IMG/VR virus record: IMGVR_UViG_3300032248_000756
Coordinates: 1 to 24,882 of that record
DNA: 24,882 nt
Strand: one strand, 5' to 3'
Source of the DNA: a virus
Taxonomy: Duplodnaviria > Caudoviricetes
Each line of letters starts with the position of its first letter. The first letter of the stretch is position 1. The position numbers and the translations under genes were made by a program. The notes under the pieces were generated by a model. The model saw only the letters and a list, made by a program, of their open reading frames with translations. It was not told the DNA's origin and made no database searches. Below are positions 9,737 through 24,767 of this stretch, piece by piece.

Positions 9737-9809
9737 TGCCCTCGGTGGGATTCGGACCCACGCTGTACCGAGTTTAAGTCGGTTGCCTCTACCGCTGGGC
9801 TACAAGGGC
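9737..9809 (-). tRNA. tRNA-Leu (anticodon TAA), short variable loop, no encoded CCA
   Basis: The reverse complement folds as a cloverleaf: GCCCTTG TA GCCCAGCGGTAGAGGC A ACCGA CTTAAAC TCGGT ACAGC GTGGG TCCGAAT CCCAC CGAGGGC A. Confidence 0.85.
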
Positions 9810-9810
9810 T

Positions 9811-9886
<76 letters not shown>

Positions 9887-9890
9887 TTAG

Positions 9891-9963
9891 TGCGCCATGT
9901 AGGGCTCGAACCTACGACCTACGGATTAAAAGTCCGCAGCTCTACCAACTGAGCTAATGGCGC
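9891..9963 (-). tRNA. tRNA-Lys (anticodon TTT), no encoded CCA
   Basis: GCGCCAT TAGCTCAGTTGGTAGAGC T GCGGA CTTTTAA TCCGT AGGTC GTAGG TTCGAGC CCTAC ATGGCGC A. Confidence 0.95.
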
Positions 9964-10160
9964 TAGCTTTCAGGAAACTTCTCCACAAAGACCTTGGCGG
10001 CCTTAGCAAGCGACTTTACATCACGCTCATTAAGAACTGTCAAATCGGTTGTTTGGATAATCTCCGCAAACCGGAAAACTTCCCTGACCCACCAAGGCTG
10101 AAAATAGTAATCAACTGCTGGCTTATCAGAACTTGGGCGAATACCTGAACTCATAATCAC
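9963..10160 (-). CDS. Small hypothetical protein inside the tRNA operon (start GTG 10160 or ATG 10154)
   Basis: The 65-aa ORF fills the gap between tRNA-Arg and tRNA-Lys on the same strand. An AGGA lies upstream of the ATG and the C-terminus is amphipathic and helical. Confidence 0.55.
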   Translation of the reverse strand: MIMSSGIRPSSDKPAVDYYFQPWWVREVFRFAEIIQTTDLTVLNERDVKSLAKAAKVFVEKFPES

Positions 10161-10170
10161 ATCCTATCAG

Positions 10171-10243
10171 TCCCCTCGGCTGGAATCGAACCAGCGGCCA
10201 AGAGATTAGAAAGCTCTTGCTCTATCCACTGAGCTACGAGGGG
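10171..10243 (-). tRNA. tRNA-Arg (anticodon TCT), no encoded CCA
   Basis: CCCCTCG TAGCTCAGTGGATAGAGC A AGAGC TTTCTAA TCTCT TGGCC GCTGG TTCGATT CCAGC CGAGGGG A. The A20 Arg identity element is present and there is a C31-U39 mismatch. Confidence 0.9.
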
Positions 10244-14459: not shown

Positions 14460-15401
14460 ATGAATAACGTGGAGTCTGTTTTAAACAGGTTAGGTATCGA
14501 CGCAATCTCAGAGACTGGTTCTGAGATGAGGGCTCTATGCCCTGGGCACTTGGATAGGACTGGCAAGGCAGATAACAATCCTTCTTGGTATATAAACATT
14601 GAGACAGGAGCGCATATTTGTTTTTCTTGCGGGTTTAAAGGAGGGCTTTATTACTTAGTTTGCTATCTGAAAGGCTTTTTTGGCCAGGAGGGGGCTAACT
14701 TTGACCAAGCCCGCAAATGGCTTGGCGACCTTGATGAAGGGATGTCCGAAGCCCTAGAAAAGGCGGAGACTAAAAAACTCGGTTTTGAGGACCTTTCTTA
14801 TATTTCAGAAGCAACTTTGTCAGCTTTTGACGCCCCTCCTGTTGAAGCCCTTTGTTCTAGAGGGCTAACCCAAGAGGCTGCCAAGGATTATTGTATTTTA
14901 TGGGATACAAGACAAGAAAATTGGATAATTCCTATTAGAGACCCTTATACAGGGGCTCTTATGGGGTGGCAAGAAAAAGGCTATAAATCTAGGTACTTTA
15001 AAAATTACCCCACAGGTATGAAGAAGAGCCTCTCAATCTTCGGCTACGGGCTTTATGAAGGAGGGGACATGATAGTAGTAGAGTCGCCTCTTGATGCCGT
15101 TAGATTGCGTTCTGTGGGCATCCAGGGGGGAGTAGCCCTATACGGCGCTCTGCCCAGCAAAGAACAAGTCAATATTATCAAGGGGGCTGACCGCATTATT
15201 TTTGCTTTAGACAATGACGAGGCTGGAAAGTCCTCTGCTTATAATTTGGCAAAAATGGGGTTTTCAAGTAACTTTGACTCCTGGTTCTTTAATTACGATT
15301 ACACCGACCAAAAAGATATTGGTGGCATGAGTAAGCCTGAGATTATTACCGGACTTGACACAGCCCGCCATGTTCTAAGACACTTACGCCACTTACGATA
15401 G
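14460..15401 (+). CDS. dnaG: DnaG-like primase (zinc finger + TOPRIM)
   Basis: CPGH...CFSCG zinc finger; TOPRIM motifs IVVESPLD and ALDNDEAG. The likely start is ATG 14460. Confidence 0.9.
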   Translation: MNNVESVLNRLGIDAISETGSEMRALCPGHLDRTGKADNNPSWYINIETGAHICFSCGFKGGLYYLVCYLKGFFGQEGANFDQARKWLGDLDEGMSEALEKAETKKLGFEDLSYISEATLSAFDAPPVEALCSRGLTQEAAKDYCILWDTRQENWIIPIRDPYTGALMGWQEKGYKSRYFKNYPTGMKKSLSIFGYGLYEGGDMIVVESPLDAVRLRSVGIQGGVALYGALPSKEQVNIIKGADRIIFALDNDEAGKSSAYNLAKMGFSSNFDSWFFNYDYTDQKDIGGMSKPEIITGLDTARHVLRHLRHLR

Positions 15402-15410
15402 GAGATTAAA

Positions 15411-15872
15411 ATGTCCAATGTTTTTCCACATTCTAATAACTGGGATGAAGAGCGCCACAGGAAGTTTGAAGAGGATTCCCGCCGTCGTTGGGATGAGACT
15501 CGCAAAGAAATTAAAGAATGGCAAAAAGAAGAAGCAAAGCGTAGAAACCCAAATAAAAGTAATCAGTTCAGCTTTACTTCAACTCCCCCGCCAACTTCTT
15601 TTGAACAAGCCGTCAAGGCTATTGCTATGGAAGCCGCTGAATTACTCATCCGCAAGCACCAAGACTACGGTCCGGATAATATCAATAACGCTCCCGGCGG
15701 CGCTATCAACGGGCTTCTTGTCCGTATGCACGACAAGATGGAACGTTTGAAGACCCTTATTTTGAGCAAGAATACCCCGAAGTACGAAAGCATTGAGGAT
15801 ACCTTCATCGATATGCTCAACTACTCCGTCATCGCTCTTATGGTTCAACGCGGAAAGTGGCCTAAGAAGTAA
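15411..15872 (+). CDS. Nucleotide-modification-associated domain 1 (Nmad1 / DUF1599-like) protein
   Basis: KHQDYGPDNI...GLLVRMHDKMERL...ESIEDTFIDMLNYSVIALMV is the family pattern. RBS AGGAG; charged N-terminal extension. Confidence 0.75.
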   Translation: MSNVFPHSNNWDEERHRKFEEDSRRRWDETRKEIKEWQKEEAKRRNPNKSNQFSFTSTPPPTSFEQAVKAIAMEAAELLIRKHQDYGPDNINNAPGGAINGLLVRMHDKMERLKTLILSKNTPKYESIEDTFIDMLNYSVIALMVQRGKWPKK

Positions 15873-16045
15873 TGCCTATGTACGAGTACCAGTGTCCGAA
15901 GTGCGAGACACTGACAGAGTTCAACGTCCCTATTGACCAACGTGATGGGTACGTGTTCTGCCCTGACTGTACTTCTAATATGAAGCGCCTTATCAGCCCC
16001 CCGGGCGTTATATTCAAAGGCGGCGGATGGGGAGGACAGGGATGA
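15872..16045 (+). CDS. FmdB-family zinc-ribbon protein (57 aa; not in the ORF track)
   Basis: Translated by hand: MPMYEYQCPKCETLTEFNVPIDQRDGYVFCPDCTSNMKRLISPPGVIFKGGGWGGQG, showing the MPxYEYxCxxC...CPxC...FKGxG signature; TAATG overlap. Confidence 0.88.
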   Translation: MPMYEYQCPKCETLTEFNVPIDQRDGYVFCPDCTSNMKRLISPPGVIFKGGGWGGQG

Positions 16046-16290
16046 GTGACCAAGTACCGGTGCATGAAGTTGAATGCGAGAACTCTTTCGCAAGGGAAAA
16101 GTTACGGATGTGCCTTTGCACTGTGTTGCGTTTGGCGTATGAACGCGGACGTGCAGATGAACAAGCGAAAGCAGTGAAGCGCGTCAATGACGCAGCAATG
16201 AAGATTGCATTGGTTGGAATCAGGAGCTTTGAGACCGCTGACTTCCTTGACCTCATGGATGCCGCTGTGCGGGACGGTGAACAGGGATGA
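16042..16290 (+). CDS. Cassette ORF 1, hypothetical (82 aa, ends GEQG)
   Basis: ATG in repeat 1 and stop in repeat 2; contains H..EC...CLC..LRLAYERGRADE. Confidence 0.7.
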   Translation: MSDQVPVHEVECENSFAREKLRMCLCTVLRLAYERGRADEQAKAVKRVNDAAMKIALVGIRSFETADFLDLMDAAVRDGEQG

Positions 16291-16436
16291 GTAAAGAGCC
16301 AAAACTTACGTTGGGATTCTGGAACATTATTGCCGACCGTCTCCTATCCATTGAAGATGAGGTTTTTGGCAATAACTTACAAACTGGTGACGCTACGACC
16401 ACCAATATGGTTACGTTGGAAGGTGAGCAGGAATGA
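16287..16436 (+). CDS. Cassette ORF 2, hypothetical (49 aa, ends GEQE)
   Basis: MSKEPKLTLGFWNIIADRLLSIEDEVFGNNLQTGDATTTNMVTLEGEQE runs exactly from repeat 2 to repeat 3. Confidence 0.65.
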   Translation: MSKEPKLTLGFWNIIADRLLSIEDEVFGNNLQTGDATTTNMVTLEGEQE

Positions 16437-16573
16437 AGCACACATGCACAGTTTTCAACAAAACCGCATGGGCATTCCAAGAACACGAGGTACTTGGTTG
16501 CGAATGCGGGCTACTGTGGATTTCCTACCAAGGCAAATGGATTCCAGCCCGTATTGGCGGTGAGCAGGGATGA
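16433..16573 (+). CDS. Cassette ORF 3, small putative zinc-binding protein (46 aa, ends GEQG)
   Basis: MKHTCTVFNKTAWAFQEHEVLGCECGLLWISYQGKWIPARIGGEQG has HxC...CxCG and runs from repeat 3 to repeat 4. Confidence 0.65.
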   Translation: MKHTCTVFNKTAWAFQEHEVLGCECGLLWISYQGKWIPARIGGEQG

Positions 16574-16773
16574 AACTACTAATCTTCAAGTTGTTTATCG
16601 CCACCTTGTGCATCCCATCCCCATCCCCGTGCTATGACCATTGCGGAACCGTTGTCGTGAATCAGGGGCATTGGAACGCCCCGGTAGTCGGTCAGGCGTT
16701 AGTTCATGGGCATTGGGTGAAGACGAAGGTTCGCACATGGAGTCCCACCTCTACTGTCAGTAAGTGCTGGTGA
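16570..16773 (+). CDS. Cassette ORF 4, hypothetical with signal-peptide-like N-terminus (67 aa)
   Basis: Starts in repeat 4 and stops at the first TGA of repeat 5. Hydrophobic N-terminus MKLLIFKLFIATLC; four Cys. Confidence 0.55.
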   Translation: MKLLIFKLFIATLCIPSPSPCYDHCGTVVVNQGHWNAPVVGQALVHGHWVKTKVRTWSPTSTVSKCW

Positions 16774-16779
16774 ACAGGG

Positions 16780-16839
16780 ATGAACTATACAATCCGCAGA
16801 GGTCAAACTATACAATCCGCAGAGGGTGAGCAGGGATGA
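16780..16839 (+). CDS. Cassette ORF 5, 19-aa mini-ORF (MNYTIRRGQTIQSAEGEQG)
   Basis: Open from the ATG in repeat 5 to the TGA in repeat 6, and coupled to the SNF2 start by ATGA. Confidence 0.4.
   Translation: MNYTIRRGQTIQSAEGEQG
16783..16825 (+). repeat. Tandem 20-bp direct repeat AACTATACAATCCGCAGAGG x2
   Basis: Perfect copies at 16783-16802 and 16806-16825, separated by TCA. Confidence 0.9.
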
Positions 16840-18422
16840 GTTTCACTGGAACACTTCTGCCTTATCAACCTGAAGCCGTAGATAAAATGTGCGAACGTGG
16901 TTCCATGCTGGTTGCCTATGATTTGGGCTTGGGCAAGACCGTCCTTACCATCGCTGCTATTGAGCAAATGATGGATGAAAAAGGTATTTTAGAGCCAGGT
17001 CTTATTATTTGTCTTTCCAGTTTGAAGTACCAGTGGGCTAGTCAAATTGAAAAGTTTACTAATGGCAGTGTTCCTTTAGTAATAGATGGCACCCCCTCGA
17101 AAAGGGCAGAGCAATATCAAACTGCTATAGACTGGAAAGAAACCGGTGTTGATTACGTTATTCTCAATTACGAGCAAGTTGTTAATGACTGGGAGTACAT
17201 AAAGTATTTACCCAAAGGGTTCATAGTTCTTGACGAGGCCACTGCCATAAAAAGTTTTAAGTCCAAAAGGTCTAAGCAAATTAAAAAGCTCTCTTCTCCT
17301 ATTAGATTTGCTTTAACAGGCACCCCTATAGAAAACGGGCGGCCTGAGGAATTGTTCTCAATTATGCAATTTGTAGATTCCAGCGTTTTAGGAAGGTTTG
17401 ACCAGTTTGATAAGACCTTCATTCTTAGAGGTTGGAATGGCTGGGTGGACGGGTACAAAAACTTGGATAAGTTCCACGAGTTAATGAAGCAGGCATCAGT
17501 GAGAAAATCTCAAACAGACCCAGATGTGTCTCCTTATCTTCCAAAGACTATTCATAGAGCCCCTGTCTTGGTGTCTTTTGATAGGGCTTCTGCAAAACTT
17601 TATAAAGCTATCTCCTCTGAGGTAGTGCAAGATATTAAAAACGCTATGGAGAATTTTGGCTCATCTTTCAGTTTGGCTGAGCACTACGGGGATTCCTCCT
17701 CCTCTAAAAGATACTCAGACATGGATGAGGCTAGAGGGCAAATCATGTCTAAAGTTGGGTGCCTTAGAATGCTGTGCAGCCACCCTGATTTATTGAAGCT
17801 TAGCGCTGATAAATTTAAAACTTTGCAAGGAGGTTCTGCTTACGCACACTTTTTAGCAGAAGAAGGTTTATTAGATAATTTAAAGTCTTGCCCAAAACTT
17901 GACTTTTTAGTGTCTTATGTAAAAGACTTTTTAGCTACTTCAGAGCAAAATAAGTTGGTTATATTCGCTTCATATATCGGTATGGTTGATATGATTGCTG
18001 ACTCACTAGGGCGAGATATTTGCGTTACTTATACAGGAGCTATGGATGCAAAGACAAAAGAACTCACTAAAGAAAACTTCAATAACAATCCCGCTGTACG
18101 GGTGTTTGTTAGTTCTGACGCTGGTGGTTACGGGGTTGATTTGCCTTCTGCTAATCTGTTGATAAACTACGACCTACCTTGGAGTGCTGGTACAGCAGCC
18201 CAGAGAAACGGCAGGATTAGGCGGGCTTCCTCAAAGTGGCCCGTCATAGTTATCCAAGACATTCTCATGGGCGGCTCTATTGAACAACGGCAGTACGAAG
18301 TTCTTCAACAAAAAAGTTCCGTGGCCTCAGCCATCATAGATGGTAGCGGATTTGACGAGCACGGTAGTTTGACGATTAATATAGACAGCCTAACAAAATT
18401 CCTAGAAGGGGAATCAACATGA
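16836..18422 (+). CDS. SNF2/SWI2-family (SF2) helicase
   Basis: LLPYQ, YDLGLGKT, IVLDEA, ALTGTPIENGRPEELFS, SSDAGGYGVDL and QRNGRIRR motifs. Confidence 0.92.
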   Translation: MSFTGTLLPYQPEAVDKMCERGSMLVAYDLGLGKTVLTIAAIEQMMDEKGILEPGLIICLSSLKYQWASQIEKFTNGSVPLVIDGTPSKRAEQYQTAIDWKETGVDYVILNYEQVVNDWEYIKYLPKGFIVLDEATAIKSFKSKRSKQIKKLSSPIRFALTGTPIENGRPEELFSIMQFVDSSVLGRFDQFDKTFILRGWNGWVDGYKNLDKFHELMKQASVRKSQTDPDVSPYLPKTIHRAPVLVSFDRASAKLYKAISSEVVQDIKNAMENFGSSFSLAEHYGDSSSSKRYSDMDEARGQIMSKVGCLRMLCSHPDLLKLSADKFKTLQGGSAYAHFLAEEGLLDNLKSCPKLDFLVSYVKDFLATSEQNKLVIFASYIGMVDMIADSLGRDICVTYTGAMDAKTKELTKENFNNNPAVRVFVSSDAGGYGVDLPSANLLINYDLPWSAGTAAQRNGRIRRASSKWPVIVIQDILMGGSIEQRQYEVLQQKSSVASAIIDGSGFDEHGSLTINIDSLTKFLEGEST

Positions 18423-22996: not shown

Positions 22997-23372
22997 CGCT
23001 AATTGGTGGGCCCAGAAACTGACTACCCCGCAAGCGCCCCCATCCCTTCCTCCTATGCAGCCCCAAAGCCGCCCGCAGGCTTTTACACAGGGTAACGAAG
23101 AGGTCTACAACGCCTCCAAGCCCCCCGTGGTTTCTGCACCAGCAGAGACTTGCCCAGGGTGCGGTAGTGGTAACTACACCAAAGTGGGGTCGATTGCCAC
23201 CGCTAACGGCACTGTGCACTCGTACCAGTGCTACGACTGCGGGTACCCTGTGATTCAGCAAGGTAGCGGCGCAGGAGGAATGGCTTCCTCTTCTAATGGC
23301 CCCGCTCAGGCTGCTCGTCAGGTTGAGGGCGGCGGTTGGAACCCTAATGTCATTATAGATAGGATTCAGTAA
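22989..23372 (+). CDS. Zinc-ribbon protein
   Basis: CPGCGSGNY...CYDCGYP; Pro/Gln-rich N-terminus; RBS AAGGAG. Confidence 0.7.
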   Translation: MNNANWWAQKLTTPQAPPSLPPMQPQSRPQAFTQGNEEVYNASKPPVVSAPAETCPGCGSGNYTKVGSIATANGTVHSYQCYDCGYPVIQQGSGAGGMASSSNGPAQAARQVEGGGWNPNVIIDRIQ

Positions 23373-24430
23373 TGAATATCGATTTAGTCAAAGTCATCAA
23401 AGACTTAAATAAAAAATTTGGCAATGAGACTGTTGTATTAGGTGCGGATATACGAGATGACATTGTAGGGCGCACGACCACAGGTTCTCTGGCCCTTGAT
23501 GTTACATTAGGTGGCGGTTGGCCTACTAACCAATGGCATGAGATTGTCGGTGAAGCTAGCAATGGCAAGACGGCGTTGGCCCTTAAAACAATTGCCGCCA
23601 ATCAAGAAAAGGACCCCAATTTCACCACCGTATGGGTAGCTGCCGAGCAATGGGTGCCCGCTTATGCTGAAATGTGCGGCGTTGATTTATCTCGCGTTTA
23701 TGTGATTAACACTAATATTATGGAGGAAGCTTATGAAGCGGTTATTTCTTTTGTGGAATCAAAAGCTGTCGATTGCGTTGTTATCGACTCTCTTCCTGCT
23801 CTTGTCCCAGGTGCTGAAGATGAAAAAACTATGGATGAAGCGACCGTTGGTCGGGGCGCTTTTCTTACCGGTAAATTTTTCCGGAAGGTGGGTAAAGCGA
23901 GCAAAAGAAGCCTTACAGAAATTGAACGCCCTTTCATAGGTCTTGTTATTAACCAATACCGTATGAAGATTGGTGTTATGTATGGTGACCCGAGGACTAC
24001 CCCCGGTGGAGAAGCTAAGAACTATGCCTTTTTCACTCGTATTGAGGTTAAGCGAGATGATTGGCTTGAATGCGGTACTGGACAAGATAAGCGCCGCGTG
24101 GGGCAAACTATCAAAATTCGCACGCTCAAGAACAAATCGGCTCCTCCTGGGCAGGTCGCGTACCTCGACTTCTACTTTGCAGACGGAGATTCCTGTCATG
24201 CGGGAGACTACGACTTCGCTAAGGAGATTGTTGCCTTAGGTATCTTGAACAAGGTTATTATCCGTGCTGGTGCTTATTACCGTTATGGTGGGCGCCAATG
24301 GCAGGGAGCGGAAGCAGTTGTGCAAGCTATCCGCGAGGAGATTGACCTTAAAGAAGCCCTTGAAAAAGATGTCATGGGAGCCGTCAAGGCTTCTTCAAAG
24401 GGCGTAGTGCAGGATGACGATGAAGAGTGA
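23372..24430 (+). CDS. recA: RecA/UvsX-like recombinase
   Basis: TGSLALDVTLGGGWP, Walker A GEASNGKT, VVIDSLPAL, INQYRMKIGVMYGDPRTTPGG and KNKSAPP. Confidence 0.95.
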   Translation: MNIDLVKVIKDLNKKFGNETVVLGADIRDDIVGRTTTGSLALDVTLGGGWPTNQWHEIVGEASNGKTALALKTIAANQEKDPNFTTVWVAAEQWVPAYAEMCGVDLSRVYVINTNIMEEAYEAVISFVESKAVDCVVIDSLPALVPGAEDEKTMDEATVGRGAFLTGKFFRKVGKASKRSLTEIERPFIGLVINQYRMKIGVMYGDPRTTPGGEAKNYAFFTRIEVKRDDWLECGTGQDKRRVGQTIKIRTLKNKSAPPGQVAYLDFYFADGDSCHAGDYDFAKEIVALGILNKVIIRAGAYYRYGGRQWQGAEAVVQAIREEIDLKEALEKDVMGAVKASSKGVVQDDDEE

Positions 24431-24767
24431 AGGCCAGAAACAGTCACAAAAGCATGAAAAAAGGCTTGCTAAGTTAATTGGCGGGTCAACCATTGCTGCT
24501 AGCGGGGCTTTCTGGAGCCGTAAAGGCGACGTGCGGTCTGACGACTTACTTATAGAGCACAAGTGGACTGGCAAAACCCAGTTCTCATTGAGAGCTGTTG
24601 TTTTGGAGAAGATTGTTAAAGAGGCCATTTTAGACGGTCGCCTCCCTGTGTTAGGCTTCTCTTTGAATAATAATAATTATGTTGTTCTTACAGAGGACGA
24701 CTTTCTAGAAATCCGCCACGCTTTACAGGAGACCAAGTGCGAAGAAACGAAAGCTGGAGAAAACTAG
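24420..24767 (+). CDS. Holliday-junction-resolvase-like PD-(D/E)XK nuclease
   Basis: HEKRLAK...SGA...KGDV...LLIEHK catalytic pattern; follows recA; alternative start at 24414. Confidence 0.7.
   Translation: MKSEGQKQSQKHEKRLAKLIGGSTIAASGAFWSRKGDVRSDDLLIEHKWTGKTQFSLRAVVLEKIVKEAILDGRLPVLGFSLNNNNYVVLTEDDFLEIRHALQETKCEETKAGEN

Follow-up and report, generated by a model that had tools for sequence, protein, structure and literature searches.

The locus described here raises the question of how five very small genes came to stand between two larger genes of a phage replication operon, and what the short repeat at their junctions is for. The window, by which we mean the whole analysed stretch of 24,882 nt, carries baseplate and tail genes, four tRNA genes and then genes for a DnaC-like protein, DnaB, primase, DUF1599, FmdB, SNF2, DNA polymerase A, RecA and a resolvase. 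The genes that bear on the question are the following.

Positions 15872 to 16045, plus strand: FmdB-like zinc-ribbon protein of 57 aa (Pfam PF09723, E 5e-10; phrog_1076), whose GGWGGQG end makes copy 1 of the repeat.
Positions 16836 to 18422, plus strand: SNF2-family helicase (PF00176, E 7e-35), a core gene and the right flank of the array.
Positions 23372 to 24430, plus strand: phage RecA-like recombinase (PF00154, E 1e-49), a candidate general recombinase.
Positions 24414 to 24767, plus strand: Holliday junction resolvase (phrog_2002, E 3e-24), a protein of general recombination.

The SNF2 protein shares 37.9% identity with its counterpart in Streptomyces phage BRock and 63–67% with those of 80 IMG/VR loci. 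From the resemblance to BRock and from the WhiB genes of the cassette-sharing phages L204 and L205, we infer an actinobacterial host. The runs in which parts of the array occur carry the label of freshwater metagenomes; none of those listed is an RNA data set, which has no bearing on expression. Across 72 related loci, the interval between primase and SNF2 varies from 12 to 1530 bp.

Six same-strand copies of a 15-bp motif, GGTGARCAGGGATGA, lie between FmdB and SNF2, at copy-to-copy spacings of 245, 146, 137, 210 and 56 bp. Four are exact.

Copy 1, 16031 to 16045, plus strand: two mismatches, GGAGG-type Shine–Dalgarno; left boundary of the array, at the native end of FmdB.
Copy 2, 16276 to 16290, plus strand: exact; homology to other runs stops at 16284–16292.
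Copy 3, 16422 to 16436, plus strand: one mismatch; left side of the joint 16427 to 16775 (below).
Copy 4, 16559 to 16573, plus strand: exact; left side of the joint 16564 to 16775 (below).
Copy 5, 16769 to 16783, plus strand: exact; acceptor for three different joints.
Copy 6, 16825 to 16839, plus strand: exact; gives SNF2 its Shine–Dalgarno and ATG.

In 100 shuffled versions of the window, the motif was matched 0.05 times on average and six matches were never reached (0/100). A seventh copy was absent from the 24.9-kb window even when up to three mismatches were allowed, which confirms the number, spacing and confinement of the copies reported in the first-pass annotation. Exact identity between window copies spans 4–15 bp, and copies 1 and 6 have an exact run of 11 bp in common.

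Each copy supplies the Shine–Dalgarno and ATG of the next ORF, as had been stated. Five of the six also encode the C-terminal residues of the preceding ORF (GGQG, GEQG, GEQE, GEQG, and GEQG) together with an ATGA stop/start overlap. The exception is copy 5, at which the ORF4 stop is the TGA within GGTGA, 6 nt upstream of the next ATG, so the claim that cassettes always arrive translationally coupled does not hold as regards coupling by overlap. The five ORFs (82, 49, 46, 67, and 19 aa) share nothing but the GEQG tail, in agreement with their earlier description as unrelated.

ORF1, 16042 to 16290, plus strand: 82 aa, GEQG end; no family; three helices predicted with low confidence.
ORF2, 16287 to 16436, plus strand: 49 aa, GEQE end; no family; in X4 and X5, two of the runs, it comes directly after ORF1.
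ORF3, 16433 to 16573, plus strand: 46 aa, GEQG end; included in a contig from run X8.
ORF4, 16570 to 16773, plus strand: 67 aa, hydrophobic N-terminus; its TGA lies inside the GGTGA of copy 5, in a frame that differs from that of GEQG.
ORF5, 16780 to 16839, plus strand: 19 aa, GEQG end; 20-bp direct repeat at 16783–16802 and 16806–16825.

No Pfam or PHROG family was found for ORF1 to ORF4 (ORF5 is below scannable length), no Rfam family within the array, and no match to the array DNA among 50,697 GenBank phage records. Four homologues of ORF1 were found, with C-termini GEQL, GELG, GEQR, and GEQE. Its structure model (pLDDT 62, five sequences in the alignment) had no fold match in BFVD at E ≤ 0.001; in the ESM Atlas, ORF1 led to unnamed clusters only, at 0.89, and ORF4 to no usable match. 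ORF2 has a single homologue (96%, C-terminus GEQG), and its IMG/VR search gave no locus. No homologue of ORF3 was found among proteins of 25–81 aa. ORF4 has a 93% homologue sharing its KCW end; in homologue P0006, the second half is replaced from about position 16666. The hydrophobic N-terminus of ORF4 ends in Cys and the tail is beta-like, and its product is possibly exported. ORF5 consists mostly of its direct repeat (16783–16825, period 23 bp), of which unit 1 is diverged in locus L037 and unit 2 (QTIQSAE) is preceded by other DNA in runs X5 and X9; ORF5 may be the scar left by a gene that was once longer, or else a second tail module that is mobile. Because the array sits in the replication operon, the cassette proteins are likely to be early accessory proteins.

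One explanation of the repeat is that it is kept only for co-ordinated translation or as a C-terminal GEQG/E peptide tag. The copies pair with an anti-Shine–Dalgarno consensus at −7.6 to −12.6 kcal/mol, compared to −0.4 to −10.5 kcal/mol for 17 other window genes, most of which are equalled or exceeded. The motif lies exactly at ribosome-binding sites, as does the highly conserved SAS at non-structural genes of actinobacteriophages. In passages of the paper on SAS (PMC7302621), that motif is linked to intergenic upstream elements and is genome-wide, whereas here the upstream DNA is coding and unconserved, and the motif overlaps the last codons and stop of the upstream gene, occurs in a cluster, and stands where genes are gained and lost. 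The distribution of the motif also argues against a role in translation alone. With up to two mismatches it occurs in none of the 81 related loci around SNF2, and ORF1 to ORF5 are likewise found in none of them. Among five near-complete relatives (82–96 kb), one (G005) carries two motif clusters elsewhere, two have one near match and two have none. In this the motif differs from an SAS, which is conserved in related genomes. The motif is not the general ribosome site of this phage, and the refuting case named earlier, a genome-wide ribosome-site consensus, is answered by the lack of any further window copy and by the 81 related loci. As to a tag, the 201 non-redundant sites among the matches listed elsewhere include 13 at which the upstream stop lies within GGTGA; at these, as at copy 5, none is made. 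Homologues also differ in their last residues. Since the tail peptide is variable and sometimes unmade, the conserved unit is the nucleic acid. Conservation for translation or tagging only would also leave unexplained the in-register empty and filled sites described below, and we consider it very improbable.

The occurrence of the motif in other viruses was compared with that of a control in which the spacer was shuffled and the Shine–Dalgarno and ATGA were kept. IMG/VR held at least 150 matches to the GEQG variant, at least 240 to the GEQE variant and at least 180 to the control (all approximate). Because the control was matched about as often, the raw counts were not taken to show spread. 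Among the matches listed, non-redundant sites bounding a single ORF numbered 11 of 78 (GEQG) and 23 of 125 (GEQE), versus 0 of 83 for the control (Fisher test, p-value 2e-4 and 5e-6, respectively). ORF–ORF junctions, counted in the same non-redundant way among the matches listed, were found at 34/78, 82/125, and 17/83 sites. A search for the host among genomes, with a 19-base pattern, returned 68 matches over many phyla; two of these bound a single ORF and none of the 68 had a cassette homologue, so the search was uninformative.

How the array came to its present place was approached via the end of FmdB. A pattern for this end matched at least 119 loci in IMG/VR, 80 of them with long flanks, and the C-termini among the 119 matches listed were GGQ (64), GGQG (35), GGQK (13), and GGQR (7). 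Among the matches listed, 28 FmdB ends lead into an ATGA overlap, and ORF1 to ORF5 occur in none of the FmdB loci listed. Judged by these ends, copy 1 is the native, conserved end of FmdB, and hence a target site and not the cassette repeat for which it had been taken. In genome G001 (locus L436), which carries DUF1599, FmdB, and SNF2, FmdB is joined directly to SNF2 without window positions 16048–16830. The FmdB genes of G001 and the window are identical at 168 of 176 nt, and blastn homology stops at 16047 and restarts at 16831. The array therefore occupies a pre-existing look-alike site and is flanked by the 11-bp exact duplication. It had been predicted that recombination between copies 1 and 6 would join FmdB to SNF2, and a direct join exists both in G001 and in run X3 (16039 to 16834).

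FmdB ends with GG and an ATGA overlap read CAA in 27 of 28 cases (among the matches listed), and so does the G001 empty site, whereas both window flank copies read CAG. This difference favours insertion over deletion as the probable origin of the array. With CAG in both flanks, the two copies are not accounted for by one clean crossover at a site like that of G001.

Two further observations concern FmdB. Many different genes follow the FmdB ends (FKGGGWGGQ) of loci L332–L450, via ATGA, TGA, or TAATG overlaps, and within this family of phages the FmdB end may itself be a general point of exchange. Compared to G001, FmdB (15872–16047) is 95% identical and SNF2 and primase merely 65–72%, so FmdB itself has probably been exchanged recently.

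The cleanest empty/filled pair is that of loci L204 and L206. Where L204 has a single copy, L206 has an additional 218-bp gene, and the two copies on either side of it are identical over an exact run of 16 bp. The flanks of the two loci are 98.7% identical over 151 bp and 99.7% identical over 2797 bp. L204, an unrelated phage, carries exonuclease and WhiB genes and, besides ORF1, has only a DUF1599-like gene in common with the window. In L203 and L204, ORF1 is 94.8% identical to the window at the nucleotide level over 16041–16290, with homology bounded by window copies 1 and 2; the junction upstream of ORF1 in these loci is not the motif. In L205, the ORF1 homologue differs in its first third and extends into ORF2 by 36 nt, which indicates exchange within genes as well. 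ORF5 recurs in L036 and L037 (91.9% nucleotide identity over 16772–16845) with motif-like junctions on both sides, and L037 is a third genome type, an unrelated phage. Cassette homologues elsewhere, a search for which had been suggested as a check, were found and are motif-bounded. Loci L024 and L205 are syntenic but differ in the genes that stand at the motif, and L222 and L254 carry the same 73-aa gene (87%, motif at its end) at different loci. Motif-bounded cassettes, with the motif on both sides, are also shared among the GEQE arrays of L233, L248, L288, and L296. Only named pairs were used here, as the all-against-all comparison of loci was dominated by one redundant phage cluster.

Arrays of four to seven copies in which the junction reads KAGEQE or RGEQE were seen in L233/L234, L236, L283/L284, L279, and L232, in phages that resemble gut or rumen types and have motif-bounded cassettes in common. 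By gene content, many KAGEQE-ending GEQE arrays look like those of gut or rumen phages. A 54% homologue of a 65-aa window ORF (9963–10160), which lies between the tRNA genes (Leu-TAA, Asn, Lys, and Arg-TCT; 9737–10243, minus strand), stands directly after a motif copy in L050. A small gene, DDxERYWKD..GDDD, is common to L204 (2910–3008) and L037 (3560–3661, reverse strand), where it adjoins window cassettes; its junction is GGTGA-based but different from the motif. Upstream of the motif, 11 distinct genes end in [YW]PC.T..GE[QR]x and form a small Cys-rich family. Proteins of the form RVRxLH..CxxC..[YW]PCxT..ALDGEQ are widespread and are a candidate source of the junction.

L645, 1112 to 1742, and L648, 911 to 2125, reverse strand: loci of the Cys-rich family with RVRxLH..CxxC..[YW]PCxT..ALDGEQ ends.
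L031, L016, L052, L222, L253, L254, L256, and L311: further loci of the family, with the same C-terminal pattern.

Joints within the array itself were sought in metagenomes, with eight of ten listed runs compared as assembled contigs (X6 and X10 were left out). Run X1 matches the array throughout. In-register joints connect copy 1 to copy 6 (16039 to 16834, X3), copy 3 to copy 5 (16427 to 16775; X3, X4, and X5) and copy 4 to copy 5 (16564 to 16775, X8), and come from three studies (P1, P2, and P4). A loose end of 15 letters in X9 suggests a skip from copy 2 to copy 5. Two joint rows carry the flag "between: not known". Several joint contigs run into genes other than SNF2 and therefore represent other phages with the same cassettes. 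Misassembly at the repeat was judged unlikely because 15 bp is below usual assembly word lengths and because one joint was found in two studies. The stretch from 16000 to 16860 has 24 distinct homology ends. Of these, 13 fall within copies, which make up 10.5% of the stretch, 18 lie at most 6 nt from a copy and six lie off copies. These ends are non-independent, and 32 loose-end rows were left out. The end at 16783 probably reflects the 20-bp duplication of ORF5 itself. Some homology breaks fall inside genes, away from copies, and a back-joint in one contig (16824 to 16356) lands in the middle of ORF2, off the repeat; no excised circle was seen among the contigs. The view that cassettes are added, deleted, and shuffled with breakpoints in the repeat is thus upheld in that number and content vary at the repeat, and in the 13 ends within copies. 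It is not upheld for some of the breaks, nor for the reordering of the same cassettes, which was unseen apart from that back-joint.

These ends bring in the explanation that breaks are illegitimate and independent of sequence, with selection for whole coupled genes, the motif being the inherited tail and ribosome site of a widespread family. Because all gene boundaries in the array are copies, the enrichment of ends does not separate homology-guided crossover from random breakage followed by selection. Off-repeat ends and chimeric genes do occur, the anti-Shine–Dalgarno match of the motif is good, and most mosaic joints are without boundary sequences according to passages of PMC3029335. Other results speak for crossover in the motif: in two independent pairs the empty site has exactly one copy and the filled site two, in register; each of the three forward joints seen within the array keeps register and falls within copies; and the control, with an equal Shine–Dalgarno and ATGA, bounds a single ORF at none of its 83 sites. 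Random breakage with selection probably explains how new genes first acquire the tail, but as an account of the array we find it unlikely.

We consider it likely that the 15-base motif is a shared crossover site for low-frequency, homology-guided recombination by general machinery, filtered by selection. Empty and filled sites differ in having the motif once or twice, and the same cassettes stand between different neighbours across phage families. The motif would have spread as the 3′ tail of the small Cys-rich family (..PC.T..ALDGEQG/E), which is common in phages, and would have become fused to the bodies of other genes, and the array would have entered here since the native end of FmdB was already motif-like. 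Crossover could proceed by general means, such as replication slippage or template switching, strand annealing, or low-efficiency phage RecA. The partners would be co-infecting genomes or excised circles, and no dedicated recombinase would be needed. A crossover within the motif would rebuild stop, Shine–Dalgarno, and start, so that the downstream core helicase would stay translated, and it is because of this regeneration that recombinants would persist.

The identity available for such exchange is short. Minimal lengths for efficient exchange are 31–34 bp for RecA and 23–27 bp for Red-beta, as quoted in a portion of PMC3945230, and identity at the junctions, about 9–16 bp, is below both. At such lengths, slippage, annealing, or a specific factor may be at work. 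A dedicated, sequence-specific, integron-like system run by an unrecognised phage or host protein would account for exchange over lengths too short for efficient RecA or Red-type recombination; the same 15-mer at the arrays of several phage groups and the recency of exchange point the same way. Against such a system, all 12 junction strands (both strands of the six junctions) fell within the range of shuffled sequences for hairpin formation (z −1.2 to +1.4), and tyrosine and serine recombinases (PF00589 and PF00239) were found in none of the five near-complete relatives, with positive controls, nor among the 31 proteins of the window, which is a genome fragment. Crossover positions differ, within and beside the motif, and its last bases vary (GEQL, GELG, GEQR, GEQA, GEQV, and GERG). 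We regard this system as quite improbable, and the likeness to integrons drawn in the first-pass annotation is an analogy only. In a wider form of the idea, GGTGARCAGGRATGA would be a standard connector across families, by which Actinobacteria phages and, separately, gut-type phages share a pool of single-gene cassettes whose circles excise and reinsert at look-alike gene ends with the help of a specific factor. We hold this to be rather unlikely; if true, the factor would make 11–16 bp recombine efficiently, and the whole would amount to an integron that lacks hairpins and has no known integrase.

The preferred reading, general recombination at a shared short site, has precedents. Boundary sequences reportedly go back to an original paper on lambdoid phages. 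Features of boundary or linker sequences were found here, namely a short shared sequence between unrelated modules and in-register alleles with one and two copies. In passages of PMC3029335, gene 68 of Island3 is present between shared gene ends of 60 bp and a relative has one recombinant copy, and genes 43–46 of mycobacteriophage LRRHood provide a 29-bp case within one subcluster. The likeness extends to the position of the gene between two copies at gene 3′ ends versus one recombinant copy, to the general recombination proposed there and to the actinobacterial phages involved. Those are single events at about 60 and 29 bp, whereas here about 9–16 bp serve five successive genes, the motif spans unrelated phage families, and stop, Shine–Dalgarno, and start lie in one site. 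The PeSLs of T4-type phages (Arbiol et al. 2010) are similarly repeated expression signals between small accessory genes that act as crossover sites. In the relevant portions of that paper (PMC2839356), no dedicated recombinase was found, a comparison to integrons is made and mini-circles are shown. A PeSL combines an intergenic promoter with a stem-loop, whereas the motif lies in coding sequence without promoter, terminator, or hairpin. In our scans, no plus-strand sigma-70-like promoter was found in 15300–17100 (other promoter types were outside the scan), and there was no terminator-like site. Integron and CALIN arrays, as presented by Qi et al. 2023 (PMC9892861), likewise have unrelated single genes separated by a recombination-linked repeat; unlike theirs, the motif is 15 bp, asymmetric, and protein-coding, with no attC-like fold and no integrase. 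No published description of the motif was found in the literature searched by concept terms. The principle is already in print, and the motif junction is not a new class of system; what sets it apart is an unusually short site that is shared across phage families.

How phage mosaics come about, through homology at short shared sites or through random breaks followed by selection, is still debated according to PMC3945230. Matched empty and filled alleles at 11–16 identical bases, one pair being 99.7% identical, bear on this debate. Recent transfer between unrelated phage families is seen at the motif. The locus illustrates how a signal for translation may at the same time act as a scarless joint, and how an ordinary gene end, that of FmdB, may become an entry point.
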